Of a stretch of 64,000 nucleotides of DNA, positions 28,711 through 45,611 are shown piece by piece (positions within the stretch are counted from its first letter, which is position 1; every line of letters begins with the position of its first letter). Both the position numbers and the translations under genes were made by a program. The notes below the pieces were generated by a model. That model was not told where the DNA came from and did not search any database. It saw nothing but the letters and a program-made list of their open reading frames with translations. Source of the stretch: an uncultured Acidobacteriota bacterium (GTDB taxonomy: Bacteria; Acidobacteriota; Vicinamibacteria; Fen-336); the NCBI GenBank assembly GCA_902826455.1, contig CADEEV010000002.1:188488-252487 (forward strand). Reading direction: 5' to 3'.

Positions 28711-28734
28711 GCGCGGCCATTCTATGATGCGCCG

Positions 28735-29484
28735 ATGCGCTCCCGCGGTCTCCTGCTCCTTCTCGCGGCCTGGCTCGCCGCACCCTCCGCCCACGCCGGC
28801 GATCCCGCGGTCGATCTCGAGCTCGCGATCGGCCGCGGCGACGTAGCCGCCGTCAAGGCCTTCCTCGCCGGCGGCCGCAGCGCCGACACGCCGATCGCCG
28901 AGGGCCACCAGACGCCGCTGCAGCGCGCCGCGTCCACCGGCAAGACCGCGATCGCGAAGCTGCTGCTCGAGCGCGGGGCCAGCGTCAACGCGCCGTCGGC
29001 CTCGGGCAGCGCCCTGCACCTCGCGATCGGCGGCGGCTGGGACGACATCGTCCAGCTCCTGATCGACAACGGCGCCGATCCCGACCAGCGCGACCCCTTC
29101 GACAACACGCCGCTCGTGAGGGCGGTGAGCGCCCAGAACCGCGAGGCCGCGCAGATCCTGATCAAGGCGGGGGCCGACCTCGGCGCCAGCACCTACGGCC
29201 TCACGCCGCTCATGTTCGCGTCGAGCACCGGCGACCCGGAGTCGATCCGCTTCCTGGTGAAGGCCGGCGCCAAGGTGAACGGCGTCGGCAAGGGCCAGTA
29301 CGGCGGCCGCAGCGCGCTGCTCGCCGCGATCCCCGACGGCCACGCGGACTGCGTCAAGGTCCTGATCGAGCTCAAGGCCGACGTGAACCAGAAGGGCCCC
29401 GACGGCAAGACGCCCCTGGCGACGGCGCGCGAGGCGAAACAGGAGGAGATCGTGACGATTCTCAAGGCCGCGGGGGCCCGGTGA
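28735..29484 (+). CDS. Secreted ankyrin-repeat protein.
   Basis: Signal peptide 'MRSRGLLLLLAAWLAAPSAHA'. ANK repeats ('TPLQRAASTGKTAIAKLLLERGASVNA...'). Confidence 0.85.
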   Translation: MRSRGLLLLLAAWLAAPSAHAGDPAVDLELAIGRGDVAAVKAFLAGGRSADTPIAEGHQTPLQRAASTGKTAIAKLLLERGASVNAPSASGSALHLAIGGGWDDIVQLLIDNGADPDQRDPFDNTPLVRAVSAQNREAAQILIKAGADLGASTYGLTPLMFASSTGDPESIRFLVKAGAKVNGVGKGQYGGRSALLAAIPDGHADCVKVLIELKADVNQKGPDGKTPLATAREAKQEEIVTILKAAGAR

Positions 29485-31025
29485 CGGGCCGCCCGCTCGT
29501 CCTCTTCCTGGCGGCAGCGCTGGCCCTGCCGGCGCATGCCGCCGATCCCAAGCTGGTTGCGAAGCTGCTGAAGCAGCTCGCCGACAGGAAGGACGACAAG
29601 CGCATCGACGCGTCCTACACCCTCGTCGACCTGCGGATCGTCGAAGCGGTGCCGGCGCTGATCGTGGCGCTGCGCGATCCCGTGAAGGAGGTGCGCTACA
29701 ACGCCGCGGGCGCGCTGTGGAACCTGGGCGAGGCCGCGCGTCCCGCCGTGCCCGACCTGATCCGTCGCCTCGACGATCCCGATCCCGGCGTGCGCGTGCA
29801 GGCGGCCGGCGCCCTGAAGGGCTTGAACGCCGCGACGGCCCAGGTCATGGCGGCGCTCAAGAAGGTGCTGGTCGACGGCGACGAGGACGATCGCAAGCGC
29901 GCCAAGGACATGCTGAAGGGCGGGGGCGCGGGCGGCATCCAGTTCGCGGCCCAGGAGGGCCAGGCCGACGTCGTGGCGGGGCTGCTCGACGGCGGCGTCG
30001 ACGTGGACGCGCTCGACGACAACAAGCGGACGGCGCTGCACTGGGCCGCGTCCCAGGGCCGCGAGGACGTCGTGAAGCTGCTGCTCGAGCGCGGCGCCGA
30101 CGTCTCGCTCGCCGACAAGGACCAGAACCAGCCACTGCACCTGGCCGCGTTCAAGGGCTCGCTGCCCGTGGCCCAGCTGCTGCTCGACAAGAAGGCCGAC
30201 GTGAACGCCGTCGAGGAGCGCCGCATCACTCCGCTGCACCTCGCGGCGCGCACGGGCAACAAGCCCCTCGTGGACCTGCTGCTGGCGCGCGGCGCCAACC
30301 CCAAGGCCAAGGACCAGCAGGGCTCGAGCCCGATGCACTGGGCGGCCTCGGGCGGCCAGACCGACGTGGTGCTCGCGTTCCTCGCGAAGGGCCTCGACGT
30401 GAACCTTCCGGACTCCCACGGCCAGGGCCCGCTCTACGACGCCGCGGCCGGCGGCCACACCGAGCTCGTGAAGCTGCTGCTCGACCGCAAGGCCGCCGTG
30501 AAGGGCACGGGCCTCATGGCGACGATGACGGGCACGCCGCTCCACGGCGCGGCCCGCGGCGGTCATCTCGCCACCATGGAGCTGCTGATCGCGCGGGGCG
30601 TGCCGCTCAACGCGGCGCAGTTCGACAAGACGGCGCTCCACGCCGCCGCCGCCGAGGGCCGGATCGAGGCCATGAAGCTGCTGCTCGCGAAGGGCATGAA
30701 GGTCGACGCCGTGGCGCCCCAGACGAGCGGCGGCACGCCGTTGTTCAGCGCCGTCTTCGAGGGCCAGCTCCCGGCGGTGCAGTTCCTGGTCGAGCAGGGC
30801 GCGAACGTGAACGCGAAGGAGGCCTCGAGCGGCCGCACGGTCCTGCACAGCGCCATGAACCGCGGCGGCCTCGACGACAAGCGCCAGGCCATCGTGAAGC
30901 TGCTCCTCGACCGCAAGGCCGATCCCAACGCGAAGGACGCGGCGGGAGCGACGCCCCTCGCGGTAGCGCTCGAGAACCAGAACAAGGAAGGTGCCGCCCT
31001 GCTGCGGCAGTACGGGGCGCAATAG
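29481..31025 (+). CDS. Secreted HEAT-repeat plus ankyrin-repeat protein.
   Basis: ATG overlaps the upstream stop (ATGA). Signal peptide 'LVLFLAAALALPAHA'. HEAT repeats ('DPVKEVRYNAAGALWNLG', 'DPDPGVRVQAAGAL'), then about 9 ANK repeats. Confidence 0.85.
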   Translation: MTGRPLVLFLAAALALPAHAADPKLVAKLLKQLADRKDDKRIDASYTLVDLRIVEAVPALIVALRDPVKEVRYNAAGALWNLGEAARPAVPDLIRRLDDPDPGVRVQAAGALKGLNAATAQVMAALKKVLVDGDEDDRKRAKDMLKGGGAGGIQFAAQEGQADVVAGLLDGGVDVDALDDNKRTALHWAASQGREDVVKLLLERGADVSLADKDQNQPLHLAAFKGSLPVAQLLLDKKADVNAVEERRITPLHLAARTGNKPLVDLLLARGANPKAKDQQGSSPMHWAASGGQTDVVLAFLAKGLDVNLPDSHGQGPLYDAAAGGHTELVKLLLDRKAAVKGTGLMATMTGTPLHGAARGGHLATMELLIARGVPLNAAQFDKTALHAAAAEGRIEAMKLLLAKGMKVDAVAPQTSGGTPLFSAVFEGQLPAVQFLVEQGANVNAKEASSGRTVLHSAMNRGGLDDKRQAIVKLLLDRKADPNAKDAAGATPLAVALENQNKEGAALLRQYGAQ

Positions 31026-31027
31026 AG

Positions 31028-33175
31028 ATGAGGCGCGCCGTCGCACTGCTGTTGGCGGGCCTGGTGGCGCCCGCGAGCCACGGGCAGCAGGTCGTGCCGG
31101 GCACGGCCGCCGAGGTGGTGCAGCTCGACGTGGTGGTGACCGACTCGAACGGCCGCCCCGTGCGCGACCTGACCCTCGCCGACTTCCTCGTGCAGGAGGA
31201 CGGCAAGCCGCAGAAGCTGTCGCTGTTCGTGCCGTCGGGCTCGAACGCCCCCGAGCCGACCGAGGAAGAGCTCGTCGCGGCGGAGGCGGCCGAGGCGGCC
31301 GGCGAGGCGCCGAAGTCGCCCGGCCGCAGCATCGCGGTCGTGGTCGACGACCTGCACATCGCCCCGGAGAGCATCGAGCTGGCGCGGCGCGCGCTGCGCC
31401 GGCTGCCCCGCGAGCTGATGCGCGACGACGACTCGGTGGCCCTGGTCACGACCGCCCATGGCGTCATCCAGCAGTTCACGAAGGACACGGCGACCCTGGG
31501 CCAGGCCATCGAGCGCCTGATCGCCCAGGCCCCGGCCTTCCCGCCCGCGGCCCACTCCCAGATGACCGCGGTGCAGGCGGAGCTGATCCTGCGGGGCGAC
31601 CGCAACGCCCGCAAGCTCGCCGCCAAGAGCCTCATCGCCGAGCCGGGCAGCATCTTCGACACGGCCGGCCCGCGCGCCGCGATCGCGGCCGCGAACGGCG
31701 GCGGCAACACGAGCGCCGCCGGCGGCGACGCCGGCAAGGAGGCCGCGGCCGAGGACGAGGTGCAGCGCCAGGCCCGCGGCGTGCTGGCCGAGGCCCTGCG
31801 CTACTCCGTCGCGTCGCTGTCGGGCGTCGAGGACGTGCTGCGCGGCCTCGGCGCGCGGCCGGGCCGCAAGCTGTGCCTGCTGGTCTCGGACGGCTTCCTG
31901 GTGGGCCGCGGCACGTCCGACGAGCGCACCCGCGACCTGCAGCGGGTCACCGACGCCGCGACGCGCGCGGGCGCCGTCGTCTACACCCTCGACACGCGCG
32001 GCCTGATCTCCGGCGGCGCCGACGCGAGCATCGCGGGCAACAGCGTGCAGCCCGAGTTCAAGGCCGGCATCGACGCCCAGTCGTCCGCGATCTACCGCAC
32101 GACCCTGCGCGACATCGCCCTCGACACCGGCGGCCTGTTCGTGTCGGGCACGAACGAGATGGCGGCCGGGATCGCGCGCATGCTGGCGGACAACGCGGCC
32201 TACTACCTCATGGCCTACGAGCCGACCAACACGAAGCGCGACGGGCGCTTCCGCAGGATCAAGGTGCGGGTGCCGGCCCACGCCAACTACGACGTGCGCA
32301 CGCGCGCCGGCTACTTCGCCCGCGACGCGAAGAAGCCCGGGCCGCCGCCGCAGCGCGCCGTGCTCGACGGCGGGCTCGATCTCGACGAGGCCCGCGAGGC
32401 CCTGGCCCAGCCGCTGCCGGGCGGCGGCATCCCGGTGTCGGTCGACGCCGCGTTCCTCGACCTGCCCGCCACCGGGCCGCAGGCCCTCGTGCGAGCCCAC
32501 GTCGAGCTGGCCGGTCTCGTGTGGGACAAGGCCGAGGGCCGCAACCACGCCACCGTCGAGCTGCTCGGCAGCGCCTACGGGCCGAGCGGACAGGCCGTGG
32601 GCGCGCCCTTCGGACAGCGCGCCGAGCTCAACTTCTCCGACGCCGAGCTCAAGCGCGCGGTCGCCGCGGGCCTCGAGTTCCAGCAGTCCCTGAGCCTGCC
32701 GCCGGGCCGCTACGACGTGCGCGTGCTGGCCCGCGAGAAGCGCATCGGCCAGGTGGGCGGCGGCAGCGCGCCGATCGAGATGCCCGACCTCGCGGACGGC
32801 GCGCTCGCCGCGAGCGGCGTGTTCCTGGCCTCGGCCAAGGCCGGCGCCGATCCCCAGACCCAGGCGCGCGGCGTGCGCCGCGTCAAGAAGGGCGAGAACC
32901 TGTTCTTCCAGGTCTACGTGTACAACGCGGAGGGCGCCGGCACCCGCGCCGCGGACGTCGTGCTGCAGGCGCAGGTGTGGTCGAACGGCAAGCCGATCGC
33001 GGCCTCGAAGGTGCAGCCCGCCAAGCTCGCGACCGACGGTGTCACGCCGATCCCCGAGACCAACGAGGTCGGCCTCTCCGGGCTCGCCCCCGGTCCCTAC
33101 GAGCTGCGCGTGGTGGTGGTCGATCGCAAGGCGGAGGCGACCGTGAAACGCTCCGCCGCGTTCGAGATCGAATGA
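31028..33175 (+). CDS. Secreted VWA-domain protein (VWFA-related acidobacterial family), copy 1.
   Basis: ATG at 31028, 2 nt after the upstream stop. Signal peptide. N-terminal 'VVQLDVVVTDSNGRPV...FLVQEDGKPQKLSLF' beta-sandwich, then a VWA domain. Confidence 0.85.
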   Translation: MRRAVALLLAGLVAPASHGQQVVPGTAAEVVQLDVVVTDSNGRPVRDLTLADFLVQEDGKPQKLSLFVPSGSNAPEPTEEELVAAEAAEAAGEAPKSPGRSIAVVVDDLHIAPESIELARRALRRLPRELMRDDDSVALVTTAHGVIQQFTKDTATLGQAIERLIAQAPAFPPAAHSQMTAVQAELILRGDRNARKLAAKSLIAEPGSIFDTAGPRAAIAAANGGGNTSAAGGDAGKEAAAEDEVQRQARGVLAEALRYSVASLSGVEDVLRGLGARPGRKLCLLVSDGFLVGRGTSDERTRDLQRVTDAATRAGAVVYTLDTRGLISGGADASIAGNSVQPEFKAGIDAQSSAIYRTTLRDIALDTGGLFVSGTNEMAAGIARMLADNAAYYLMAYEPTNTKRDGRFRRIKVRVPAHANYDVRTRAGYFARDAKKPGPPPQRAVLDGGLDLDEAREALAQPLPGGGIPVSVDAAFLDLPATGPQALVRAHVELAGLVWDKAEGRNHATVELLGSAYGPSGQAVGAPFGQRAELNFSDAELKRAVAAGLEFQQSLSLPPGRYDVRVLAREKRIGQVGGGSAPIEMPDLADGALAASGVFLASAKAGADPQTQARGVRRVKKGENLFFQVYVYNAEGAGTRAADVVLQAQVWSNGKPIAASKVQPAKLATDGVTPIPETNEVGLSGLAPGPYELRVVVVDRKAEATVKRSAAFEIE

Positions 33176-33183
33176 GGGTGACG

Positions 33184-35304
33184 ATGAAGAAGGCATTCGC
33201 CATCGGCCTTGCGCTCCTGCTGACGCCCAGGGCCGGGGCCCAGCAGGCCGTCACCGGATCCGCCGCCGAGATCGTGCAGCTCGACGTGGTGGTGACCGAC
33301 GGCGACGGGAAGCCGGTCCGCACCCTGACCCAGGCCGACTTCGAGGTTCAGGAGGACGGCAAGCCGCAGCGCCTGTCGTTGTTCGTGCCTTCCGGGGCCT
33401 CGGGCACGCTGGCCGTGGCCGACACGCCAGGCGCCGCGGGCGCCCCTCCGGGCCCCGCGGCGGCCGGCCGCAACATCGCGGTGGTCGTGGACGACATCCA
33501 CATCGCTCCGGAGAACCTGGTGCAGGCCCGCACGGCGCTGAAGCGGCTGCCCCGCGAGATGATGCTCGAGGGCGACAGCGTCGCGCTGGTGTCCTCGACG
33601 CGCGGTGTCATCGAGCCGTTCACGAAGGACCGCGAGCGCCTCGAGCACGCGATCGACACGCTCCTGGCGCTGGCGCCGCCGGCGCCCCAGGGCCGCGGCA
33701 CGCAGATGACGCCGGCCCAGGCCGAGCTGATCCTGCGCGGCGACCGCAACGCCCGCAAGCTCGCGGCGCGCACGCTGCGCCTCGAGCCCGGGAGCGTCAG
33801 CGATTCGAACGGGCCGCGCGCGGCGCTCACCAGCAACTACGGCCAGTCCGGGGCGCCGACCGAGGAGGGCGTCGATGCGGCGGCGGAAGACGAGGCCCAG
33901 CGCCAGGCCCGCGGCATTCTCGCGGAGACGCTGCACTTCTCGGTCGCTTCCCTGGCGGCCGTCGAGGACGTCAGCCGCGCGATGTCGGCGTGGCCCGGCC
34001 GCAAGGTGATGCTGCTGCTCTCGGACGGCTTCCTGGTGGGCCGCGGCACGAGCGAGGAGCGCACGCGCGAGGTGCAGCGCGTCGTCGACGCGGCGACGCG
34101 CGGCGGCGCCGTCGTGTACACCATGGACACCAAGGGCCTGATCACCGGCGGCCCGGACGCGAGCGCCGCGGGAACCGCCGTGGGCCAGGACTTCAAGGCG
34201 AACGTCGACCAGCAGTCGATGCAGCTCCTGCGCGGCACGCTCGCCGACATCGCGGCCCAGACCGGCGGCTTTCTCGTCGCCGGCACGAACGACCTCGCGG
34301 GCGGCCTCGCGCGCATGCTGGACGACAACGCGTCCTACTACCTCATGGCCTACGAGCCGCTGAACGCGAAGCGCGACGGCAAGTTCCGCCGCATCAAGGT
34401 GCGCCTGCCGGCCCACGCGAGCTACCAGGTGCGCACGCGCGCCGGCTACTACGCGCGCGACGCCAAGGTGGCGGCGCCGCCGCCGCCGCGCGCCGTGCTC
34501 ACGCCGGGCCTCGACCTCGGCACCGTGGTCGCGGCCCTCGCGGCGCCGCTGCCGCAAGGCGGCATCCCGGTGCGGCTCGGGGCCGACTTCCTGTCCTTGC
34601 CGGCCACGGGCTCGCAGGCCCTGGTCCAGGCCCACGTCGACATCGCGGCGCTCCAGTGGCAGAAGACGGCGGGGCGCAACCAGGCCACCCTCGAGCTGCT
34701 CGGCAGCGCGTTCGATGCCGGCGGCAACGCGGCCGGCGCGCCGTTCGGCCAGCGCGCCGAGCTCAACTTCTCCGACGAAGAGCTGAAGCGCGCGAGGGCC
34801 ACCGGCGTCGAGTTCCAGCAGGCGCTCGGCCTGCCGCCCGGCCGCTACGAGGTGCGGCTGCTCGCGCGCGAGACGCGGCTGGGACAGGCGGGCTCGAGCC
34901 ACGTCGCGCTCGAGGTGCCGGATCTCGCGAACGGCGCCCTCGCCACGAGCGGCGTGTTCCTGGCCGCGGCCCCCGCCGCGGCGTCGCAATCGGCGAAGTC
35001 GCAGCGCCGCTTCAAGAAGGACACGAGCCTGTTCTTCCAGGTCTACGTGTACAACGCGCGGGGTGCTTCCGAAGGCGCCGCGGACGTGGTGCTGCAGGCG
35101 CAGATCTGGTCGGGCGGCAAGGCCATCGCGGCCTCGAAGCCGCAGCCCGCGACGCTCGGCAAGGACGGGGAGACGCCGCTGCCCGAGACCAACGAGGTGG
35201 GCCTCGCCGGGCTCGAGCCGGGTCCCTACGAGCTGCGCGTGGTGGTGGTCGACCGCAAGGCCAACGTCAACGCGCTGCGCACGGCCGAGTTCGCGATCGA
35301 GTGA
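33184..35304 (+). CDS. Secreted VWA-domain protein (VWFA-related acidobacterial family), copy 2. Tandem paralog of copy 1.
   Basis: ATG at 33184. Collinear with copy 1 throughout ('IVQLDVVVTDGDGKPV...FEVQEDGKPQRLSLF' ... 'GPYELRVVVVDRKA'). Confidence 0.85.
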   Translation: MKKAFAIGLALLLTPRAGAQQAVTGSAAEIVQLDVVVTDGDGKPVRTLTQADFEVQEDGKPQRLSLFVPSGASGTLAVADTPGAAGAPPGPAAAGRNIAVVVDDIHIAPENLVQARTALKRLPREMMLEGDSVALVSSTRGVIEPFTKDRERLEHAIDTLLALAPPAPQGRGTQMTPAQAELILRGDRNARKLAARTLRLEPGSVSDSNGPRAALTSNYGQSGAPTEEGVDAAAEDEAQRQARGILAETLHFSVASLAAVEDVSRAMSAWPGRKVMLLLSDGFLVGRGTSEERTREVQRVVDAATRGGAVVYTMDTKGLITGGPDASAAGTAVGQDFKANVDQQSMQLLRGTLADIAAQTGGFLVAGTNDLAGGLARMLDDNASYYLMAYEPLNAKRDGKFRRIKVRLPAHASYQVRTRAGYYARDAKVAAPPPPRAVLTPGLDLGTVVAALAAPLPQGGIPVRLGADFLSLPATGSQALVQAHVDIAALQWQKTAGRNQATLELLGSAFDAGGNAAGAPFGQRAELNFSDEELKRARATGVEFQQALGLPPGRYEVRLLARETRLGQAGSSHVALEVPDLANGALATSGVFLAAAPAAASQSAKSQRRFKKDTSLFFQVYVYNARGASEGAADVVLQAQIWSGGKAIAASKPQPATLGKDGETPLPETNEVGLAGLEPGPYELRVVVVDRKANVNALRTAEFAIE

Positions 35305-36263
35305 AGCCGCTCCGCTTCGCCCTGGGCTGCGCCGCGCTGCTGCTGATGTGGGGTGGCCTCGCGGCCCTGGCGCTCCGCGTCATGACGCCGGTGACGCCCG
35401 CGGCCCCGCGGCCCTGGCTGGCTCTCGTGGCCGGCGGCCTCGTGGCGCTGGGCCTGCAGAGCCTGTGGTACCTGGCGTTCGGCGGGGTCGGGCGCGGCTC
35501 CGGCTCGCGGCAGGAGATCCTGAGGCGCGCCGCGGCGGGCGAGGCGCCGCCCGACGGCGGCTTCATCGTGGCGACGGGCACCGTGCGTGCGCTCGGCGCG
35601 CCGCTCGTAGCACCGCTCTCGGGCCGCGAGTGCGCCGCCTACATGTACCGGATGTTCTACCGCGGCCGCGAGGCCGGCAAGAAGCGCGCGCTCGCCGAGG
35701 TGCCGGTGTTCTGGGGCCACTCGTTCCGGCCCTTCGCGATCGACCATCCCGCCGCGCGCTTCCGTGTGATGGCGGTGCCGCTGCTCGGCAACCAGGCCGA
35801 GCGCCGCGAGGGCGACGCCGTCGTGGCTCAGGCCCGGCAGTGGGTCGCCTCTACTGCGTTCGAGGATGTTTCGCCCAACGTCGTCGGTTCGCTCGGCGCG
35901 GCCCTCGCCCACGTGAAGACGCTGTTCAGCGACGAGGACGGCGAGGACCGCCGCGACTACCGGCGCGCCGGCGAGGAGGGCCGCGATCCCGGGACGCTGA
36001 TCCTCGAGGAGACCCTCCTGCCCGTCGGCGAGGTGGCTTCGGTCTCGGGCCGCTGGTCCGCGGCGAAGAGCGCCATCGTGGCGGGCGGCGGCGACGCCGT
36101 GGCGGAGACCGTGTCGGCCGTGCTGGGACCGCCCGAGCGCCTGAAGGGGCCGGGCGAAGTGCCGCCCTCGTTCGCGTCCTACCTGACGAGCGCGATCGTG
36201 CTCACGGCCCTGGGCGCCGGCCTCGTCTGGTTCTCGATCGCGATCCTGCCCGGGATGAAATGA
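35301..36263 (+). CDS. Hypothetical membrane protein.
   Basis: GTG at 35301 overlaps the upstream TGA. Two N-terminal TM segments and one C-terminal TM segment. Confidence 0.6.
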   Translation: MKPLRFALGCAALLLMWGGLAALALRVMTPVTPAAPRPWLALVAGGLVALGLQSLWYLAFGGVGRGSGSRQEILRRAAAGEAPPDGGFIVATGTVRALGAPLVAPLSGRECAAYMYRMFYRGREAGKKRALAEVPVFWGHSFRPFAIDHPAARFRVMAVPLLGNQAERREGDAVVAQARQWVASTAFEDVSPNVVGSLGAALAHVKTLFSDEDGEDRRDYRRAGEEGRDPGTLILEETLLPVGEVASVSGRWSAAKSAIVAGGGDAVAETVSAVLGPPERLKGPGEVPPSFASYLTSAIVLTALGAGLVWFSIAILPGMK

Positions 36264-37711
36264 AGGGCGGCCTCGTCCTCGTCACGGGCGCCACCGGCTA
36301 CATCGGGGGCCGCCTCGTGCCCCGACTGCTCGAGGCCGGCTACCGCGTGCGCTGCCTGGCGCGGGCCCGCGGCAAGCTCGCGGCACACGTGTGGGCCGCG
36401 GATCCGCGCGTCGAGATCGTCGAGGGCGACGTCGGGGAGCCCGAGGCGCTCCAGATAGCGCTCGCCGGCTGCACGGCCGCCTACTACCTCGTGCACTCCA
36501 TGGTCGCGACGGGCGCCGCGTACGCGGCCCAGGACCGCGCGCTCGCGGAGGCCTTCGCGGGCGCGGCCGGCCGTGCGGGGCTCGAGCGCCTCGTCTACCT
36601 GGGCGGGCTGGGCGAGCTCGGCGACGGTCTCTCGGAGCACCTCGAGTCGCGGCGCGAGGTAGAGCGCAGGCTCCAGTCGGGCCCGATCCCGGTGACCGTG
36701 TTGCGCGCGGCCATGATCATCGGCTCCGGGTCCGCCTCCTTCGAGATCCTGCGCTACCTCGTCGAGCGCCTGCCGGTGATGATCACCCCCAAGTGGGTCG
36801 CGACCGAGTGCCAGCCGATCGCCGTGCGCAACGTCCTGCGCTACCTGGTCGCGTGCCTCGACGTGCCCGAGACGCGCGGCCGCACCCTCGACATCGGCGG
36901 GCCCGACGTGCTCTCGTACCGCGCGATCATGGACGTCATGGCCGAGGAGCGCGGGCTTCCGCGGCGCATCGTGATCCCCGTGCCCGTGCTGACGCCGCGC
37001 CTCAGCTCGCTCTGGATCCATCTCGTCACCCCGCTCTCGCGACGCATCGCGCGCCCGCTCGCCGAGGGGCTGCGCAACCGCGTGGTGTGCCGCAACGACG
37101 ACGCGCAGCGCCTCATGCCCGGCTCGCTGCTGACCGTGCGCGAGGCGATCCGCGCGGCGCTCCAGCGCCTGAAGGCCGGTGACGTCGAGACGGCGTGGTC
37201 CACCGCCGGGCCGATCCCGGGCGACCCCGACTGGGCCGGCGGCACCGTGTTCACGGACAGCCGCTCCGTCGCGATTGCGGCGAGCCCGGCCCGGGTCTTC
37301 GCCGCGGTGCGGCGCATCGGCGGCGGCCACGGCTGGTACGCGGCCGACCGGCTGTGGCGCCTGCGCGGCCTTCTCGATCGCCTGGTGGGCGGCCCCGGCC
37401 TGCGCCGCGGCCGGCGCGATCCCGACAGCGTCGGCTACGGCGAGGCCCTCGACTTCTGGCGCGTGACCGGCCTCGTGCCCGACCGGCGTCTCGCCCTGCG
37501 CGCCGAGATGAAGCTGCCGGGCGAGGCCCTGCTGGAGTTCACGGTCGAGCCCGAGGGTGCGAACGCGCGGCTGGTGCAGACCGCGCGGTTCCTGCCCCGC
37601 GGCCTGCTCGGCCTCGCCTACTGGTACGCCGTGCTGCCCTTCCACGGCATCGTCTTCGCCGGCATGCTCCAGGGCATCCGGCGCGAGGCGGAGACGCCCG
37701 CGCCCGCCTGA
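36260..37711 (+). CDS. NAD(P)-binding SDR/NmrA-like domain fused to a DUF2867-like domain.
   Basis: ATG overlaps the upstream stop (ATGA). Rossmann motif 'LVTGATGYIGGRLV'. The C-terminal ~160 aa is SRPBCC-like ('VFTDSRSVAIAASPARVFAAVRRIGGGHGWY'). Confidence 0.8.
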   Translation: MKGGLVLVTGATGYIGGRLVPRLLEAGYRVRCLARARGKLAAHVWAADPRVEIVEGDVGEPEALQIALAGCTAAYYLVHSMVATGAAYAAQDRALAEAFAGAAGRAGLERLVYLGGLGELGDGLSEHLESRREVERRLQSGPIPVTVLRAAMIIGSGSASFEILRYLVERLPVMITPKWVATECQPIAVRNVLRYLVACLDVPETRGRTLDIGGPDVLSYRAIMDVMAEERGLPRRIVIPVPVLTPRLSSLWIHLVTPLSRRIARPLAEGLRNRVVCRNDDAQRLMPGSLLTVREAIRAALQRLKAGDVETAWSTAGPIPGDPDWAGGTVFTDSRSVAIAASPARVFAAVRRIGGGHGWYAADRLWRLRGLLDRLVGGPGLRRGRRDPDSVGYGEALDFWRVTGLVPDRRLALRAEMKLPGEALLEFTVEPEGANARLVQTARFLPRGLLGLAYWYAVLPFHGIVFAGMLQGIRREAETPAPA

Positions 37712-37714
37712 GCC

Positions 37715-38527
37715 ATGCCCGAGCTCCCCGAGGTCGAGGTCACGCGCCGGCAGCTCGCCCCCATGCTCGTGGGGCGCAAGGTCGCGCGCGTCTTCACGAC
37801 CCGGCCGAGCTACTTCTTCCTGACGCCGCCGGCGACGCTGCGGCGGCGCCTCACGGGCCGCGTCGTCGAGCGCCTGGAGCGCCTCGGCAAGTACCTGCTC
37901 GCCGACCTCGACAGCGGCGAGCGCCTCTTGCTCCACCTCGGCATGACGGGGGAGATCGTGCGCGAGGGCGCCGTCGACCACGACCGCCACGTGCACCTGC
38001 GCCTCGAGTTCGACGACGGCCGGCCCGGCGTCGTGTTCCGCGACGAGCGCAAGTTCGGGAAGGTGCAGCTCCTCGCCGCCGGCGAGGACTCGAAGCGCGT
38101 GCTGCGCCTGGGCCCCGACGCGCTCTCGGCCGACGCGGAGCACCTCCACGCGGCCACGCGCGGGCGGCGCATCCCGATCAAGACGCTGCTGCTGGACCAG
38201 GCGGTGCTGGCCGGCGTCGGCAACATCTACGCGGACGAGGCGCTGTTCCTGGCGCGGGTGCGTCCCACGCGGCGCGCCGCCGGCCTGACGCGGGCCGAGA
38301 CCCCGGCGATCGCCGCCGCGGTGCGCCAGGTGCTGCGGCGCGCGATCGAGGCCGGCGGCTCCAGCATCAGCGACTTCGTCCAGCCCGAGGGTGGAGAAGG
38401 CGGCTATCAGCACGAGCGCCACGTCTACGCGCGCGAGGGCGAGCCCTGCGGCCGCTGCGGCACGGCGATCCGCCGCACGGTGCTCGGCCAGCGCTCGTCC
38501 CACTACTGCCCGAGCTGCCAGCGCTGA
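37715..38527 (+). CDS. mutM: Formamidopyrimidine-DNA glycosylase.
   Basis: Canonical N-terminus 'MPELPEVEVTRR'. 'KFGKVQL' and a C-terminal zinc finger 'CGRCGTAIRRTVLGQRSSHYCPSCQ'. Confidence 0.95.
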   Translation: MPELPEVEVTRRQLAPMLVGRKVARVFTTRPSYFFLTPPATLRRRLTGRVVERLERLGKYLLADLDSGERLLLHLGMTGEIVREGAVDHDRHVHLRLEFDDGRPGVVFRDERKFGKVQLLAAGEDSKRVLRLGPDALSADAEHLHAATRGRRIPIKTLLLDQAVLAGVGNIYADEALFLARVRPTRRAAGLTRAETPAIAAAVRQVLRRAIEAGGSSISDFVQPEGGEGGYQHERHVYAREGEPCGRCGTAIRRTVLGQRSSHYCPSCQR

Positions 38528-38528
38528 G

Positions 38529-38825
38529 ATGGCCGAGGACGACGACCCTCCCTTCGAGCTGCCAATTGGGGACGAGCTCGACCTGCACGCCTTCGCGCCC
38601 CGCGACGTGACCTCCGTGGTGGAGGATTACCTGAGGGCCTGCCGCGAGCGGGGCATCCTGCGGGTGCGGCTCGTCCACGGACGCGGTCGCGGGGTGCAGC
38701 GCTCGGCCGTGCGGGCGCTGTGTGCCCGGCTCCCGTTCGTGGTCGGCCTCGACGAGGCGCCGCCCGAGCTCGGCGGCTGGGGTGCGACGTTCGTGACGCT
38801 GGCAGCGCCCACCGACATCGGCTAA
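38529..38825 (+). CDS. Small Smr-domain protein (98 aa).
   Basis: Starts 1 nt after the mutM stop. Smr-like 'ELDLHAF...ILRVRLVHGRGRG'. Confidence 0.7.
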   Translation: MAEDDDPPFELPIGDELDLHAFAPRDVTSVVEDYLRACRERGILRVRLVHGRGRGVQRSAVRALCARLPFVVGLDEAPPELGGWGATFVTLAAPTDIG

Positions 38826-38870
38826 CGTCGCCCCACCGCAAGCACTCACGTACAACCTGCTGGAGGTGCG

Positions 38871-40352
38871 ATGCTCGCCCTGTCCCTCTCCCTGGCCCTG
38901 CTCGGTGCCGCCGCTCCCGCCGCCGAGCCCCCCGAGCTCGCCGGCTTCGCCGAGTACGCCGCGAAGGCAATGGCCGACTGGCACGCGCCGGGCCTGGCCG
39001 TCGCGGTCGTGAAGGACGGCGCCGTGGTGTTCGAGCGCGGCTTCGGCGTGCGCACGCTGGGCAAGCCCGAGCCCGTCGACACGGCCACGCGCTTCGCCGC
39101 CGCGTCGACGACGAAGGCCATGACCGCGACGGCGCTGCTGCTGCTCGCGAAGGACGGCAAGCTCTCCCTCGACGAGCCGGCTATCCGCTACGTGCCGGAG
39201 CTGCGCTTCAAGGACCCCTACGTGACCCGCGAGGTCCGCGTGCGTGACCTGCTCACCCACAGCGCCGGGATGCCCAGCACCGATTGGCTCTGGTACGAGC
39301 AGGAGGAATCGACGCCCGAGATCCTCAAGCACCTGCAGTGGGTGGAGCCGGCGAGCTCCATGCGCACCCACTTCCTCTACCAGAACGTGATGTACGGCGC
39401 CGCGGGCGAGGTGGTGGCCCGCGCCTCGGGCATGCCCTGGGCGGACTTCGTACGGACGCGCCTGTTCGCTCCGCTCGGGATGAAGGACACGCTCCCGCTC
39501 GCGAGCCTCGTGGCGGGCCAGCCCGACGTGGCCTCGCCCCACGCCGAGCGCGCGGGCCGCGTCGAGGTGATCCGGAACGCGAGCGTCGACGGCGTCGCGC
39601 CGGCCGGCTCCGTGTGGTCGAGCATCCACGACATGGCGCGCTGGGTGACGTACCTGCTCGACCCGAAGAACGCCGAGACGCTCGGGCCGTTGTTCGAGCC
39701 CCAGGTGATCATCGACCCCGACGAGTTCTATCCGACCGCGCGCCTCACGCAGCCCCACTGGACGACCTACGGCCTCGGCTGGTTCCAGCAGGACTACGCC
39801 GGCCAGAAGCTCGACTTCCACACCGGCAGCATCGACGGCATGGTGGCGATCGTGGGCCTCGTGCGCGACAAGAACCTCGGCATCGTCGTGCTCTCGAACC
39901 TGGACGGCTCGCAGCTCCGCCATGCCTTGATGCTGTCGGTCTTCGATCGCTACCTCGGCCGGCCCCCGCGCGACTGGAGCGCCGACCTGCGCGCGCTCTA
40001 CGGCGGACGCAAGAAGGAGCAGGACGAGGCCGAGGCGAAGCTCGTGGCGGCGCGCCACGAAGGCACGCGGCCGTCCCTGACCCTCGAGCGCTACGTCGGT
40101 CGCTACGCCGACCCGCGCGCGACGCCGGTGGAGGTGGCGATGACGGACGGGGCGCTGCGGCTGCGCTTCGGACGCGGCGGCGCCCGTCTCGAGCACTGGC
40201 ACTACGAGACGTTCCGCGCCGTCTGGGACGCGACCTGGCGGGATCCGGAGTTCGTTACGTTCCGGCTCGACGCCGCCGGCGCGGTGAAGGAGCTCGAGAT
40301 GGGCCCGCTCGCGTTCCAGCGCGAGGCTCCGGCCGCCGCGGCGAGCCGCTAG
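38871..40352 (+). CDS. Beta-lactamase-fold serine hydrolase (class C / PBP-like) with a C-terminal extension.
   Basis: Signal peptide. 'ASTTK' (SxxK), 'YQN', 'HTG' motifs. Confidence 0.85.
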   Translation: MLALSLSLALLGAAAPAAEPPELAGFAEYAAKAMADWHAPGLAVAVVKDGAVVFERGFGVRTLGKPEPVDTATRFAAASTTKAMTATALLLLAKDGKLSLDEPAIRYVPELRFKDPYVTREVRVRDLLTHSAGMPSTDWLWYEQEESTPEILKHLQWVEPASSMRTHFLYQNVMYGAAGEVVARASGMPWADFVRTRLFAPLGMKDTLPLASLVAGQPDVASPHAERAGRVEVIRNASVDGVAPAGSVWSSIHDMARWVTYLLDPKNAETLGPLFEPQVIIDPDEFYPTARLTQPHWTTYGLGWFQQDYAGQKLDFHTGSIDGMVAIVGLVRDKNLGIVVLSNLDGSQLRHALMLSVFDRYLGRPPRDWSADLRALYGGRKKEQDEAEAKLVAARHEGTRPSLTLERYVGRYADPRATPVEVAMTDGALRLRFGRGGARLEHWHYETFRAVWDATWRDPEFVTFRLDAAGAVKELEMGPLAFQREAPAAAASR

Positions 40353-40362
40353 AATCGCCGCC

Positions 40363-42366
40363 ATGCAACAGCGCTGTCTCGCACTGCTCGTGTGCGCCGC
40401 CCTCCCGGCGCTCGCCGAGGCTGCCGCGCGCCATGGCTTCGGCCTCGCCGACCTGGACCGGCTCGAGTCCGTCTCCGACCCTCAGGTGTCGCCCGACGGC
40501 GCCTGGGTGGCATACGTGGTCGAGCGCGTCGACGCGAAGAAGGACGCGAACACGAGCGACCTGTGGATGACGCGCTGGGACGGCCAGGAGAGCGTGCGGC
40601 TCACCGCGAGCCCCGAGGACGACACGCAGCCGCGCTTCAGCCCCGACGGGCGCGAGATCGCCTTCCTGTCCGCGCGCGGCGGCGACGACGCCACGACCCA
40701 GGTCTGGATCCTGAACCGCGCCGGCGGCGAAGCGACGGCGCTCACGCACCTCCCGGGCGAGGTCGAGGACTTCGCCTGGGCGCCCGACGGCAAGCGCCTC
40801 GCGTTGATCGTCGGCGATCCCGATCCCGAGCCCGCCGGCGACGACGCCGCCGACACCGCGCGGCCGATCGTGATCGACCGCTATCACTTCAAGCAGGACT
40901 ACCAGGGCTATCTCACCGACCAGCGCTCGCACCTCTACGTGTTCGACCGCGCGACGGGGAAGGCGACGCAGATCCTGTCGGGCGCCTTCGACGAGACGAT
41001 GCCGTCGTGGTCGCCGGACGGGACCGAGATCCTGTTCGTGAGCAAGCGCGACGGCGATCCGGACCGCCGCGAGAACTACGACCTGTACCTGGTAGAGCCG
41101 AAGGCCGGCGCCGTGCCGCGCAAGCTCACGACCTTCGTGGGTGTCGACAACCTGCCGGACTGGGACAGCCGGCCCGCGTGGAGCCCCGACGGCAAGACCA
41201 TCGCCTACGCGCGGCTGGGCACGGCCGAGGACGCCGACGAGTTCTACGGCCCGCCGGAGATCGCGACGATCGCCGCCGCGGGCGGAGAGCCCAGGCGTCT
41301 CACCGCCTCGGTCGACCGCTGGATGCTGCACCCGCGGTTCTCGGCGGACGGCGCCTGGCTCTACTTCCAGCTCGAGGACGACCGCAGCGTCGTGCTCGCC
41401 CGCGTGCCGGCCGCCGGCGGGCCGGTGGAACGACTCCTCGCGCCCGGTGTCGTCGTCAGCGCGGTGGCGACGGGGAAATCGGGCGTCGCCGTCATCGCCG
41501 GAACCGGTGCCGCGCCCGCCGAGCTGCAGGTCCTCGACGGCAAGGCGCTACGGCCGCTGACGACGCGCAACGCCGCGCTGCTCGCGAGCCTCGACCTCGG
41601 CGCGGTCGAAGCGGTCGACCTCAAGAGCCAGGACGGCACGCCGATCGGCGCCATGCTCGTGAAGCCTCCGGATTTCCAGAATGGCAAGCGCTACCCGCTG
41701 CTGCTCTGGATCCACGGCGGCCCGGTGATGCAGGACCAGCACGCCTTCGACAGCTTCGCGCAGTTCTTCGCGGGCCAGGGCTACGTCGTGCTGAGCCCGA
41801 ACTATCGCGGCAGCGGCGGACGCGGCTTCGCGTTCGCGAAGGCGATCAGCGGCGACTGGGGCCACCTCGAGGTGCTGGACGTCCTGGGCGCCGTCGACGG
41901 CCTGGTCGCCCAGGGCATCGCCGATCCTCAGCGTCTCGTGGTCGGCGGCTGGAGCTACGGCGGCATGATGACGAACTACGTCATCGCGAGCGACACGCGC
42001 TTCAAGGCCGCCGCGAGCATCGCGGGCGTCTCCAACATGCTCGGCAGCTACGGCACCGACCAGTACGTCACCTGGTACGAGCGCGAGCTGGGCCTGCCCT
42101 GGAAGGGCCTCGACAAGTGGCTGAAGGTCTCGTACCCCTTCTACCACGCCGACCGCATCACGACCCCGACGATGTTCCTGTGCGGCGAGAAGGACTGGAA
42201 CGTGCCGCTCGTGAACTCGGAGCAGATGTTCCAGGCCCTGAAGAGCCTCGGCGTCGACACGAAGCTCGTGATCTACCCGGGGGCCCACCACGGCATCGAC
42301 GCGCCCAGCTACCAGCGCGACATCCTCGAGCGGATGCTCGCCTGGTACCAGAAGCACCTGCCGTGA
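40363..42366 (+). CDS. S9 family (prolyl oligopeptidase / DPP-like) serine peptidase.
   Basis: Signal peptide. TolB-like beta-propeller N-terminus. 'GGWSYGG' nucleophile elbow. Confidence 0.88.
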   Translation: MQQRCLALLVCAALPALAEAAARHGFGLADLDRLESVSDPQVSPDGAWVAYVVERVDAKKDANTSDLWMTRWDGQESVRLTASPEDDTQPRFSPDGREIAFLSARGGDDATTQVWILNRAGGEATALTHLPGEVEDFAWAPDGKRLALIVGDPDPEPAGDDAADTARPIVIDRYHFKQDYQGYLTDQRSHLYVFDRATGKATQILSGAFDETMPSWSPDGTEILFVSKRDGDPDRRENYDLYLVEPKAGAVPRKLTTFVGVDNLPDWDSRPAWSPDGKTIAYARLGTAEDADEFYGPPEIATIAAAGGEPRRLTASVDRWMLHPRFSADGAWLYFQLEDDRSVVLARVPAAGGPVERLLAPGVVVSAVATGKSGVAVIAGTGAAPAELQVLDGKALRPLTTRNAALLASLDLGAVEAVDLKSQDGTPIGAMLVKPPDFQNGKRYPLLLWIHGGPVMQDQHAFDSFAQFFAGQGYVVLSPNYRGSGGRGFAFAKAISGDWGHLEVLDVLGAVDGLVAQGIADPQRLVVGGWSYGGMMTNYVIASDTRFKAAASIAGVSNMLGSYGTDQYVTWYERELGLPWKGLDKWLKVSYPFYHADRITTPTMFLCGEKDWNVPLVNSEQMFQALKSLGVDTKLVIYPGAHHGIDAPSYQRDILERMLAWYQKHLP

Positions 42367-44825: not shown

Positions 44826-44828
44826 ACG

Positions 44829-45611
44829 CTACTTCCCGAAGGCCTCCGCCTTCTTCTTGATCTCGGCCATCTCCGGCGACGCCGCGAGCTCCTTGAGCGC
44901 GGCGTTCACGCGCACGAACAGGTCCTTGTCCTCGCGCCGCACGCCGACGTGGTACCCGAGGCGGTTCAAGGGCTCGCCCACGACGCGGATCGTGGGGTCG
45001 TCGTTGACGCGCCAGCGCACGTAGGTCGAGTCGTGGACGAGGGCGTCGAGGGTGCCGTCGAGGAGCGCCTTGAACAGGGCGCCCTCGCTGTCGAAGGACT
45101 TCGACTGGGTCGCGCCCAGCGAGCGCAGGGTCTGCTCGACCGCGGGATCGGCGTAGTAGCCCACGAGACGCGCGGTGGCGAGGTCGCGATAGGTGCGCAC
45201 CTTGGCGTCGGCGCCGTGCACCGCGATCACGAGGCCCCAGGAGTAGTACGGGTCGGACGCGGCGACGCTCGCGGGCGTCTTGCGGCTCGGCGTCCAGGAG
45301 CTGAGGATCACGTCGAACTTGTTCTCGAGAAGCTCCTTCTCGATGTTGATCCAGCTCGCGCTCACGAAGCGCGGGGTCATGCCGAGGCGCTGGGCGAGCG
45401 CCTTCGCGACGTCGACGTCGAGGCCGGACAGGCCCTTGAACTGCGCGGGCGTCACGGGCGGGAGCGACGTGGCGCCGCCGAGGAGGGCCGGCAGCCGCTC
45501 GGGCACGAAGGACCAGGGCGGGTTGTCGCTCGAGATCCCGATCCTGAGCTCGGCGCCCAGGGCCGGCAGCCCGAGCAGGGCCAGCGCCACGACCGTCGCG
45601 AATCGCTTCAT
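44829..45611 (-). CDS. ABC transporter substrate-binding protein, family 3 (amino-acid-binding type).
   Basis: Signal peptide 'MKRFATVVALALLGLPALGA'. SBP_bac_3-like sequence. Confidence 0.8.
   Translation of the reverse strand: MKRFATVVALALLGLPALGAELRIGISSDNPPWSFVPERLPALLGGATSLPPVTPAQFKGLSGLDVDVAKALAQRLGMTPRFVSASWINIEKELLENKFDVILSSWTPSRKTPASVAASDPYYSWGLVIAVHGADAKVRTYRDLATARLVGYYADPAVEQTLRSLGATQSKSFDSEGALFKALLDGTLDALVHDSTYVRWRVNDDPTIRVVGEPLNRLGYHVGVRREDKDLFVRVNAALKELAASPEMAEIKKKAEAFGK

Follow-up and report, generated by a model that had tools for sequence, protein, structure and literature searches.

We analysed a run of closely packed plus-strand genes in the window (the whole 64,000-nucleotide stretch of DNA), which comes from an acidobacterial, Vicinamibacteria-like genome. 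It is likely that eleven of these genes, g1 to g11 (28735-44825), form a compact, probably co-transcribed operon in which functionally independent units are strung together, and not the genes for one machine. Evidence of joint work from outside the array exists for one set alone, the exported ankyrin proteins together with the membrane protein g5, and it comes from sequence comparison. The VWA, SDR, MutM and Smr proteins look like co-transcribed passengers, and the genes other than the ankyrin and g5 genes (those for the VWFA-related proteins, g6, Fpg, Smr, g9 and g10) would act on their own. Coordinates and assignments are summarized in the table.

Table. Genes and candidate signals of the eleven-gene string, in window coordinates
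Feature	Position	Strand	Assignment	Basis
TATGAT	28723..28728	+	-10-like hexamer, candidate; 6 nt 5' of the g1 ATG	Read from sequence
g1	28735..29484	+	Ankyrin-repeat protein, predicted exported, 249 aa	Pfam Ank_2 3e-39; GC3 frame
g2	29481..31025	+	HEAT + ankyrin repeat protein, predicted exported, 514 aa	Pfam HEAT_2 6e-13, Ank_2 1e-80
g3	31028..33175	+	VWFA-related protein (TIGR03436), predicted exported, 715 aa	NCBIfam TIGR03436, 213.3 bits
g4	33184..35304	+	Tandem paralogue of g3, 706 aa	NCBIfam TIGR03436, 217.1 bits
g5	35301..36263	+	3-TM membrane protein, unnamed family, 320 aa	AF2 pLDDT 77
g6	36260..37711	+	Atypical SDR fused to DUF2867, 483 aa	Pfam NAD_binding_10/NmrA + DUF2867
g7	37715..38527	+	Formamidopyrimidine-DNA glycosylase (Fpg/MutM), 270 aa	NF002211, 288 bits (cutoff 212)
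g8	38529..38825	+	Small stand-alone Smr-domain protein, 98 aa	Pfam Smr PF01713 1.9e-16, 60.4 bits (cutoff 25.7)
g9	38871..40352	+	Beta-lactamase-fold serine hydrolase + DUF3471, predicted exported	Pfam
g10	40363..42366	+	S9 prolyl-oligopeptidase-family peptidase with PD40 propeller, predicted exported	Pfam
g11	42363..44825	+	Duplicated MacB_PCD/FtsX permease, 820 aa	Pfam
Hairpin	44838..44853	+	Terminator-like hairpin with T-rich tail, 13 nt after the g11 stop	Consensus scan, pattern match only

The initial annotation described the first eight genes (28735-38825, the array), and both the GC3 frame plot and the translations agree with these eight plus-strand open reading frames, which are free of internal stops. 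Proteins annotated on a 255,934-bp NCBI contig match seven of these products exactly; the exception is g2, for which a different start was presumably called there. Pfam and NCBIfam also agree with the domains first assigned (ankyrin, HEAT plus ankyrin, two TIGR03436 VWFA-related proteins, three TM helices, SDR plus DUF2867, Fpg/MutM and Smr), and the profiles proposed for checking them (TIGR03436, Ank_2, HEAT_2 and DUF2867) all found matches. The predicted export of g1 to g4 is consistent with Sec-type signal-like N-terminal segments, read by eye on these proteins and on their orthologues. The N-terminus of g1 (MRSRGLLLLLAAWLAAPSAHA) is signal-like, and g1, g2 and their orthologues have N-termini of the n-h-c type ending in AHA or A-x-A. 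Because of these export signals, g1 and g2 are probably extracytoplasmic.

Neighbouring genes of the array overlap by 4 nt or are separated by 1-8 nt, as originally described, with one correction: the g1/g2 overlap at 29481 reads GTGA, not ATGA. The g4/g5 and g5/g6 junctions are GTGA and ATGA overlaps, respectively, and the gaps measure 2 nt (g2/g3), 8 nt (g3/g4), 3 nt (g6/g7) and 1 nt (g7/g8). The same tight junctions are found in the relative L019. Genes across the window often overlap by 4 nt or stand close together, even when they are convergent, and a crude codon-usage gene caller finds 11 of 18 pairs outside the array to be tight. On related acidobacterial contigs with independent gene calls, the gap is at most 10 nt in 23 of 70 co-directional pairs (33%; median 31 nt). 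The packing of the array is therefore above background, yet not extreme for this compact genome (73% GC). Seven consecutive junctions of at most 8 nt, kept in L019, could also reflect selection to express the whole set together. The right-hand boundary of the array is arbitrary, because g9 (after a 45-nt gap), g10 (10-nt gap) and g11 (4-nt overlap) extend the string to 44825. PADLOC models of anti-phage defence gave nothing for g3 to g8 and only generic ankyrin or HEAT matches for g1 and g2 (PDC-M72A, Ankyrin, MzaA, HEAT_CxxC_PDDEXK); a known anti-phage defence system was rejected, as no system-specific match was found beyond these repeats.

We propose that transcription starts at the -10-like TATGAT hexamer just upstream of the g1 start codon, and that the mRNA may be leaderless. 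The hexamer sits inside the 24-nt divergent intergenic region 28711-28734, and the same TATGAT-N6-start arrangement precedes the ankyrin gene in L019, despite a different upstream gene there. A consensus promoter scan gave no match for the region of this site, so that we infer, rather than observe, a promoter. The Shine-Dalgarno (SD) scan found no motif before g1 and SD-like motifs only before g4 and g9 (GGAGG in the latter case), and because of this distribution most of the downstream genes would be translated by termination-reinitiation coupling. From 28735 up to 43391, no terminator-like hairpin was detected on the plus strand by the consensus scan; the first lies inside g11 (43391-43409). 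Judged by their spacing, g1 to g8 are probably on one transcript, and a single long transcript from g1 to g11 is plausible. The initial proposal of one transcript with coupled translation is thus consistent with the tight spacing and with the lack of a terminator-like site from g1 to the inside of g11; its limit of eight genes is not, as the string goes on to g11.

The array order recurs only in the close acidobacterial relatives L019, L004 and L011, with insertions and deletions and with syntenic flanks. In L019, an MFS gene is followed by ANK, HEAT-ANK, one VWA gene, g5, SDR, mutM, smr, bla (g9) and S9 (g10), and then by SBP, PBP and VWA-like genes. L004 has VWA, g5, mutM, smr, bla and S9, and L011 has HEAT-ANK, a VWA scar of ~190 nt, g5 and mutM; both are without the SDR gene. 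The scar joins the VWA start codon to the final ~55 codons and contains a frameshift; since several of the comparison loci are short metagenome contigs, an assembly error could conceivably account for it. The VWA copy number within the clade is 0 (the L011 deletion scar), 1 (L019) or 2. Synteny reaches beyond the array to an upstream MFS gene (85% identity) and the downstream genes d1-d4 (72-93% identity), and the conservation within the clade is therefore not array-specific.

At greater distance the VWFA, g5 and HEAT-ANK anchors lose their array neighbours, with locus L014, where an ankyrin gene lies 3' of a g5 homologue, as a partial exception. None of 47 metagenome loci anchored on the ~720-aa VWFA family (397 kb; 33 loci with at least 1 kb upstream and 29 with at least 700 nt downstream) contains ANK, g5, SDR-DUF2867, mutM or smr, and two further VWFA-anchored loci (L020, L021) do not repeat the array combination. 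L019 aside, g5 homologues of at most 59% identity have unrelated neighbourhoods (L001, L002, L007 and seven GTDB loci). Orthologues of g2 are 78-79% identical in L019 and L011; those at 58% and 43% identity stand in unrelated contexts (L069, L070), with no VWA gene or g5 nearby. The g1 orthologue in L019 is 63% identical. The search for conserved synteny that the initial annotation had proposed therefore recovers the order in L019, L004 and L011 only, and not at the 47 plus two VWFA-anchored, about ten g5-anchored and two g2-anchored loci.

The membrane protein g5 has no Pfam or NCBIfam match. Its two N-terminal TM helices are followed by a soluble beta-rich domain and then by a third TM helix at the C-terminus, and a profile search yields a family of 791 cluster representatives. 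Among the best 150 of these 791, 41 are at least 400 aa long and at least 25 carry ankyrin repeats directly after TM3; Pfam confirmed the repeats in six of seven long members tested, and one member has TPR in their place. The fusion proteins, one of which comes from an Acidobacteria MAG (MBV9496916.1), come from a subfamily that is more remote (E about 1e-37 to 1e-22). The ankyrin domain is rare in bacteria. In 91 family proteins, the mean number of K+R residues is 2.96 after TM2 and 2.48 before TM3, versus 1.33 in loop 1 and 1.32 after TM3, and from this positive-inside count we infer that the beta-rich domain is cytoplasmic and the C-terminus outside. With the C-terminus so placed, the fused ankyrin repeats would also lie outside, on the predicted periplasmic side, and thus in the compartment to which the signal peptides assign g1 and g2.

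At L014, the g5 homologue is followed by an ankyrin gene on the same strand, the product of which has a signal- or lipobox-like N-terminus. Given the fusions after TM3 and this adjacency, it is plausible that g5 and the exported ankyrin proteins are a functional pair, in which g5 would work with g1 and g2 as a membrane-anchored module alongside a periplasmic protein-binding solenoid. For this locus the link is indirect: the array g5 ends ~5 residues after TM3 and has a predicted periplasmic loop of only ~10 residues, which may leave little for free periplasmic g1 or g2 to contact. Unfused g5 homologues have no ankyrin neighbour in nine of the eleven lineages examined.

The VWFA-related proteins g3 and g4 are 64-65% identical to each other, and g3 is 74% identical to the sole VWA gene product of L019. 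Neither has a Pfam match, the Pfam VWA models included. The motif DDLH stands at the position of the MIDAS DxSxS, and across 28 family members (alignment A2) D103 and H106 are invariant, while D104 and L105 are each kept in at least 90%. A canonical VWA domain was accordingly rejected for both proteins. The AF2 model of g4 (pLDDT 72) has two C-terminal beta-sandwich domains and a long helical insertion, and its Foldseek matches are RbmA FnIII pairs and transglutaminase C-terminal barrels. We hypothesize that g3 and g4, each with a degenerate MIDAS and a pair of Ig/FnIII-like domains, are exported and act in binding or as matrix-type proteins.

In g6, the motif TGATGYIG (TGxxGxxG) is found at residue 9 and YxxxK nowhere, which led us to reject a classical SDR. 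As its best Pfam matches are NAD_binding_10 and NmrA, g6 is assigned as an atypical SDR of the NmrA-like kind, to which an SRPBCC-like DUF2867 domain is fused; it would act on its own. A counterpart is present in L019, and the junctions left by its absence from L004 and L011 are clean. The g7 protein also passes TIGR00577 (269, cutoff 203), begins with MPELPEVE (Pro2/Glu3) and ends in a zinc finger (C245-x2-C-x16-C-x2-C). The smr gene follows mutM in L004 and L019, and a 67% identical Smr is found behind a different gene in L020. Both Fpg and Smr would be cytoplasmic housekeeping nucleic-acid enzymes, each independent of the rest. In L004 and L019, g9 after smr and g10 are kept and tblastn found no g11; g9 and g10 would be exported hydrolases acting separately.

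The initial annotation proposed that the array encodes one undescribed envelope complex, possibly linked to redox stress, comprising either all of g1 to g8, mutM and smr included as integral components, or no fewer than ANK, HEAT-ANK, the VWFA pair, the TM protein and SDR-DUF2867. We now regard such a complex as very improbable. It would explain why all junctions are tight, in L019 too, and why five products are predicted to be exported or membrane-bound, and no known partner system (MoxR, catalase) is present to account for the genes otherwise. However, the gene order is lost beyond a narrow clade and broken by insertions and deletions within it: two relatives have no SDR gene, L019 has a single VWFA gene, and in L011 the VWFA gene is deleted. 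Moreover, no other component occurs at any of the 47 VWFA-anchored loci, beyond the clade the other array genes are missing around homologues of g5 and g2, the clade synteny covers unrelated flanking genes, and Fpg and Smr are cytoplasmic enzymes without signal peptides. What survives of the scaffold idea is the link between the ankyrin proteins and g5, which is backed by domain fusions; VWA, SDR, mutM and smr are not tied in. Co-expression without a complex, as a response to oxidative or envelope stress, would bring together AnkB-like periplasmic ankyrin proteins, exported hydrolases, an SDR that binds NAD(P), and Fpg, which repairs 8-oxoguanine. In favour of this reading, Fpg is a genuine repair enzyme for oxidative damage, the linkage of ANK to mutM is kept in four clade members, and periplasmic AnkB provides a precedent for H2O2 resistance in P. 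aeruginosa (as reported in PMC10294975). We nevertheless consider this improbable, because the Pfam-scanned genes in and beside the string include no catalase, peroxidase, OxyR/PerR-type regulator or thiol-redox gene, and the SDR lacks YxxxK and is dispensable in relatives.

A purely convenient arrangement, in which genome compaction and drift account for the string and the ankyrin-g5 link is no functional link either, is unlikely but carries some weight. Short gaps and 4-nt overlaps are found window-wide and gaps this short occur in a third of co-directional pairs in related contigs, most g5 lineages have no ankyrin neighbour, and g2 orthologues occur without g5. Against it stand the ankyrin fusions in at least 25 of the best 150 g5-family representatives, the exported ankyrin gene adjoining the distant g5 homologue at L014, and the agreement between the predicted side of the fused repeats and the export signals of g1 and g2. 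We therefore favour an operon of independent units that includes one plausible pair.

Several known systems resemble parts of this operon. Bat operons comprise a MoxR AAA+ ATPase, DUF58, BatA/BatB VWA and TPR proteins. The string shares with such MoxR-VWA aerotolerance-type clusters two tandem VWA-type genes beside alpha-solenoid repeat proteins and a membrane protein; however, it has cleavable-looking signal peptides in place of TM anchors on its VWA proteins, and their MIDAS is degenerate. Neither AAA_3/MoxR nor DUF58 was found among 20 proteins scanned with Pfam (g1-g11, two upstream minus-strand, four downstream and three further upstream plus-strand genes), in keeping with the initial remark that the VWA genes have no MoxR ATPase nearby. 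The wider TIGR03436 family (acidobact_VWFA) comes from Acidobacteriota, as do g3 and g4, which score far above its curated NCBIfam cutoff of 81.25 bits. Homologues of ~720 aa with 43-51% identity are abundant, the few with a named source are assigned to Vicinamibacteria, and a full-text literature search for TIGR03436 returned no papers and no published function. This subgroup differs from canonical VWA proteins in the DDLH motif, the helical insertion and the paired beta-sandwich domains.

The TM - beta-rich domain - TM layout of g5 is also that of GIDE proteins (PF12483; MUL1/MAPL-type). GIDE matches were weak and limited to 2 of 17 g5 relatives (E 0.069), with none for g5 itself and none at E ≤0.01 in 20 distant family members; GIDE was rejected, as the Pfam threshold was not reached. 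The g7 and g8 proteins fit their family models, and the mutM-smr adjacency occurs only in the close clade; since g8 is far below the cutoffs of the SmrA, SmrB and MutS2 equivalogs, it is a generic stand-alone Smr. The katB-ankB operon is found in P. aeruginosa and also in Xanthomonas and Leptospira, and its adjacent catalase gene is the defining partner of ankB. No catalase domain was found among the genes scanned with Pfam from 23356 to 51959, and g1 and g2 match generic ankyrin models only, with no AnkB-specific match; g2 adds HEAT repeats. Like AnkB, g1 and g2 carry ankyrin repeats, and their signal-like N-termini make them candidates for export. In P. aeruginosa, AnkB in the periplasm supports both the activity of the KatB catalase and resistance to H2O2 (Howell et al., 2000, as cited in PMC10294975).

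A position-specific GC plot shows successive plus-strand coding frames from position 28735 onward, in agreement with eight consecutive ORFs (g1 to g8) in a window with a GC content of about 73%, where long spurious ORFs are plentiful. The eight ORFs proposed in the initial annotation are borne out by this plot and by their clean translations, their domain annotations are confirmed by Pfam and NCBIfam, and seven of the eight products are identical to proteins already called on an NCBI contig. The names of homologues point to an origin in Vicinamibacteria/Acidobacteriota. The junctions from g1 to g8 are, in order, a 4-nt overlap, a 2-nt gap, an 8-nt gap, two 4-nt overlaps, a 3-nt gap and a 1-nt gap; the only slip among them concerns the overlap at 29481, which reads GTGA and had been given as ATGA. 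Sec-type signal-like N-termini are present on g1 to g4 and on their orthologues. The co-directional string runs past 38825 through three further genes (g9 to g11) to 44825.

Features of the string and of other parts of the window
Feature	Position	Strand	Assignment	Remarks
Giant ORF	129-7109	+	CarboxypepD_reg, Big_5 and GDSL-lipase domains	at least 2326 aa
u1	27697-28710	-	membrane protein, no Pfam family	upstream neighbour; ATG 28710-28708
g1	28735-29484	+	ANK (Pfam/NCBIfam)	clean translation
g2	29481-31025	+	HEAT_2 + ANK (Pfam/NCBIfam)	clean translation
g3	31028-33175	+	TIGR03436 acidobact_VWFA, no Pfam match	213 bits (cutoff 81)
g4	33184-35304	+	TIGR03436 acidobact_VWFA, no Pfam match	217 bits (cutoff 81)
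g5	35301-36263	+	three-TM protein, no Pfam or NCBIfam family	
g6	36260-37711	+	NAD_binding_10/NmrA + DUF2867	
g7	37715-38527	+	Fpg equivalog	
g8	38529-38825	+	Smr	
g9		+	beta-lactamase-fold protein with DUF3471	45-nt gap after g8; own GGAGG
g10		+	S9 peptidase	10-nt gap after g9
g11	42363-44825	+	duplicated MacB_PCD/FtsX permease	4-nt overlap with g10
Third VWFA-related gene	46573-48768	-	no Pfam match	731 aa

GC content (54-70%) is lower over the first 9000 or so nucleotides of the window than elsewhere in it, and the GC3 signal there is comparatively weak. The giant ORF located there may encode a surface protein that was acquired recently or is of atypical composition. An rRNA operon in this low-coding region is ruled out by the lack of any Rfam match. 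Since Rfam gave no match in the whole window, the array also contains no riboswitch, leader RNA or other structured RNA of that database, and PADLOC detected no defence system.

The signals around the string are consistent with a single transcription unit. A consensus scan found no terminator-like hairpin on the plus strand from 28735 to 43391; one hairpin lies within g11 (43391-43409), and the next (44838-44853) starts 13 nt past the g11 stop codon. A sigma-70 consensus scan of 27500-45500 returned no promoter-like sites. Just 24 nt (28711-28734) separate g1 from the divergent gene u1, and this spacer is AT-rich against a genomic GC content of 73%. By eye, we found in it a plus-strand TATGAT ending 6 nt ahead of the g1 ATG and a minus-strand TAGAAT 8 nt ahead of the u1 ATG, two -10-like hexamers that overlap. 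The arrangement TATGAT-N6-start also precedes the orthologous ANK gene of L019, a close clade relative, although u1 is absent there. Shine-Dalgarno-like motifs occur in the string only before g4 and g9, and neither g1 nor u1 has one. From these motifs, the spacer suggests back-to-back leaderless transcripts of u1 and g1: the transcript would begin at or beside the g1 start codon, and translation of each downstream gene would couple to that of the gene before it.

On related acidobacterial contigs with independently called genes, the gap is no longer than 10 nt in 23 of 70 co-directional pairs (median 31 nt), and a crude codon-usage caller finds 11 of 18 pairs in the window outside the array equally tight, with convergent pairs also just 3-6 nt apart. 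The two gene-calling approaches thus set the background of tight junctions at 33-61%. The view that tight spacing is merely a genome-wide habit is partly true, but the run of seven exceeds this background; seven consecutive tight junctions are somewhat enriched, in a genome that is generally compact. The packing supports an operon and not a shared function. A single transcript, as initially proposed, is therefore likely from the spacing, while the step from packing to common function does not hold; tight packing in compact high-GC genomes is no proof of it.

Comparison with other genomes leads away from an eight-gene system. The ~720-aa VWFA form represented by g3 and g4 belongs to a large family (43-51% identity), whose few source-named members are assigned to Vicinamibacteria, and on two long contigs (L020, L021) it lies in unrelated contexts. 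A metagenome scan with the VWFA family alignment yielded 47 loci (397 kb in total; upstream sequence of 1 kb or more in 33, downstream sequence of 700 nt or more in 29), at none of which did tblastn with all window proteins detect ANK, g5, SDR-DUF2867, mutM or smr. Neither VWA nor g5 genes occur near the HEAT-ANK orthologues at 58% identity (located on a 592-kb contig) and at 43%. Among 5.8 billion proteins, g5 has no more than 20 close clusters, and its neighbours change with distance: in one group at 59% identity (L007-L010) it follows ccmG-ccmH-cycH and a DsbA-like gene, at 57% (L002, L003) it is flanked by two small unknown genes, and at 48% (L001) its upstream neighbour is a divergently transcribed Ser/Thr kinase gene and its downstream neighbour a convergent ABC-transporter gene. 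Seven GTDB species representatives with g5 homologues at 35-49% identity, in MAGs labelled Acidobacteriota, Vicinamibacteria and Thermoanaerobaculia and in three labelled Betaproteobacteria, proteobacterium and Rhodoferax, show no VWA, SDR, mutM or smr nearby. An all-against-all ORF comparison of 11 loci, 4 kb on each side, gave no conserved g5 neighbour other than shadow ORFs.

Only three close relatives retain recognizable parts of the order. L019 (g5 59% identical) has the whole string with tight junctions but a single VWA gene, closer to g3 (74% identity) than to g4 (67%). L004 (77%) carries a g4-like VWA end followed by g5, mutM, smr, bla and S9, and L011 (68%) a g2-like HEAT-ANK gene (79%), a ~190-nt VWA remnant, g5 and mutM. 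Both lack the SDR-DUF2867 gene, with clean g5/mutM junctions. The L011 remnant (1059-1228) consists of the VWA start codon, ATGAAGAAG, and, directly attached, the final ~55 codons with a 1-nt frameshift, and it lies between intact HEAT-ANK and g5 genes; provided that it is not an assembly artefact, this scar is a natural VWFA deletion. The flanks of L019 are syntenic as well, upstream with an MFS gene at 85% and downstream with SBP, PBP and third VWA-like genes at 72-78%. L019 lacks u1 and g11 at the corresponding positions and L004 also lacks g11, further indels within an otherwise collinear 25-kb block.

Across the loci compared, the eight-gene order is confined to one narrow clade, in which unrelated neighbour genes are equally syntenic and the VWFA and SDR genes are variably present. 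The initial annotation had suggested an undescribed envelope-associated scaffold or complex, possibly redox-stress linked, and had named a gene order not conserved outside this genome as grounds for refutation; beyond the narrow clade the order is indeed not conserved. That system is not supported; what survives of the interpretation is a likely operon and a plausible link between the ankyrin proteins and the membrane protein.

The 3' genes are of familiar kinds. Because g6 has the TGxxGxxG motif and lacks YxxxK, its sequence marks it as an atypical NmrA-like SDR; a literature search gave only two incidental mentions of DUF2867. Both the Fpg N-terminus and the zinc finger are present in g7, and g8 is a generic stand-alone Smr protein. 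As the L020 Smr, 67% identical to g8, comes after a different gene, the mutM-smr adjacency is also limited to the clade.

The ~720-aa VWFA proteins have DDLH in place of the MIDAS DxSxS motif, with D103 and H106 invariant and D104 and L105 kept in 90% or more of the members; the large TIGR03436 family therefore includes a subgroup that lost the canonical motif. In an AF2 model of g4 (pLDDT 72), the alpha/beta core is VWA-like and carries a long helical insertion, and the two beta-sandwiches that come after it at the C-terminus match the FnIII pairs of RbmA and the C-terminal barrels of transglutaminases. The modelled fold is consistent with these being, plausibly, exported binding or matrix proteins without canonical metal-dependent adhesion. 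A full-text literature search for TIGR03436 returned no papers, and the family has no published function.

At six of the 47 metagenome loci (L028, L031, L032, L033, L037, L047) and on L021, a duplicated MacB_PCD/FtsX permease 35-40% identical to g11 adjoins the ~720-aa VWFA gene, on its downstream side in six of the seven and on its upstream side in L037; one more metagenome locus, L068, gives only a partial 133-aa permease match. In the window, g11 lies 7 kb downstream of the VWFA genes. Given the strong expansion of both families in Acidobacteria, the adjacency may arise by chance. The third VWFA-related gene of the window is 25-27% identical to g3 and g4 and occupies the same position in L004 (77%) and L019 (72%); at two metagenome loci (L042, L046) this type stands in tandem with the g3/g4 type.

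The g5 family gives a concrete lead. A profile search returned 791 matches at E ≤1e-3 among 1.84 billion representatives, and 41 of the best 150 are at least 400 aa long. At least 25 of these 41 carry ankyrin repeats immediately C-terminal to the third TM helix; Pfam confirmed ANK in six of seven long members of one test set, and one family member has TPR repeats instead. The fusions, which include an annotated Acidobacteria MAG protein (MBV9496916.1), retain signature motifs of the family such as PLxAPxSGxxCVAYxY and DEDG. Many of them (P0334, P0340, P0398 and others) have, beyond the ANK repeats, an extra C-terminal region of ~100-150 aa without Pfam match (the stretch noted runs from about residue 430 to the end); it may bind a ligand or act as an effector domain. 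A GIDE identity for g5 was rejected, with hits in only two of 17 members (E 0.069) and in none of 20 distant members.

In the AF2 model of g5 (pLDDT 77), two N-terminal TM helices precede a beta-rich domain and a C-terminal TM helix. Mean K+R counts over 91 family members are higher after TM2 (2.96) and before TM3 (2.48) than in loop 1 (1.33) and after TM3 (1.32). By this heuristic, the beta-domain is predicted to be cytoplasmic, and the C-terminus, with any fused ANK, to lie outside the membrane, where g1 and g2 are also predicted to be. The locus L014, from a Vicinamibacteria MAG, has a g5 homologue at 41% identity, and downstream of it on the same strand come a small membrane ORF and then an ANK protein with a signal/lipobox-like N-terminus. 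Against a pairing, g5 itself is predicted to expose very little to the periplasm, and most unfused homologues have no ANK neighbour. A functional ANK-g5 pairing is plausible and not established.

We speculate that g5-type proteins, an uncharacterised Pfam-less module of ~790 cluster representatives with members from Acidobacteriota MAGs and from three MAGs that bear proteobacterial or betaproteobacterial labels, would pair a beta-domain on the cytoplasmic side with a solenoid of ankyrin, sometimes TPR, repeats on the extracytoplasmic side. Many lineages would have this solenoid as a cis fusion, and here the Sec-exported g1 and g2 would provide it in trans. The pair would form a trans-envelope device of a new kind, for binding or signalling, with the VWFA proteins encoded in between as its periplasmic clients or ligands in this clade. 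Taken as a whole, we consider this scheme improbable. An unnamed membrane family that is repeatedly fused to ANK on the predicted periplasmic side is a modest but concrete lead, and the fusions offer a testable handle on the role of exported ankyrin proteins in free-living soil Acidobacteria.

Neither of two known systems provides a template for the array. An analogy with Bat/MoxR is ruled out because MoxR and DUF58 partner genes are absent from the string and the scanned flanks by Pfam, in line with the lack of a MoxR partner noted initially, and an analogy with AnkB-catalase because no catalase gene occurs in the same regions. The novelty of the whole array is low: it is an ordinary clade-specific operon of mixed function, made up of known kinds of genes and one uncharacterised membrane family.
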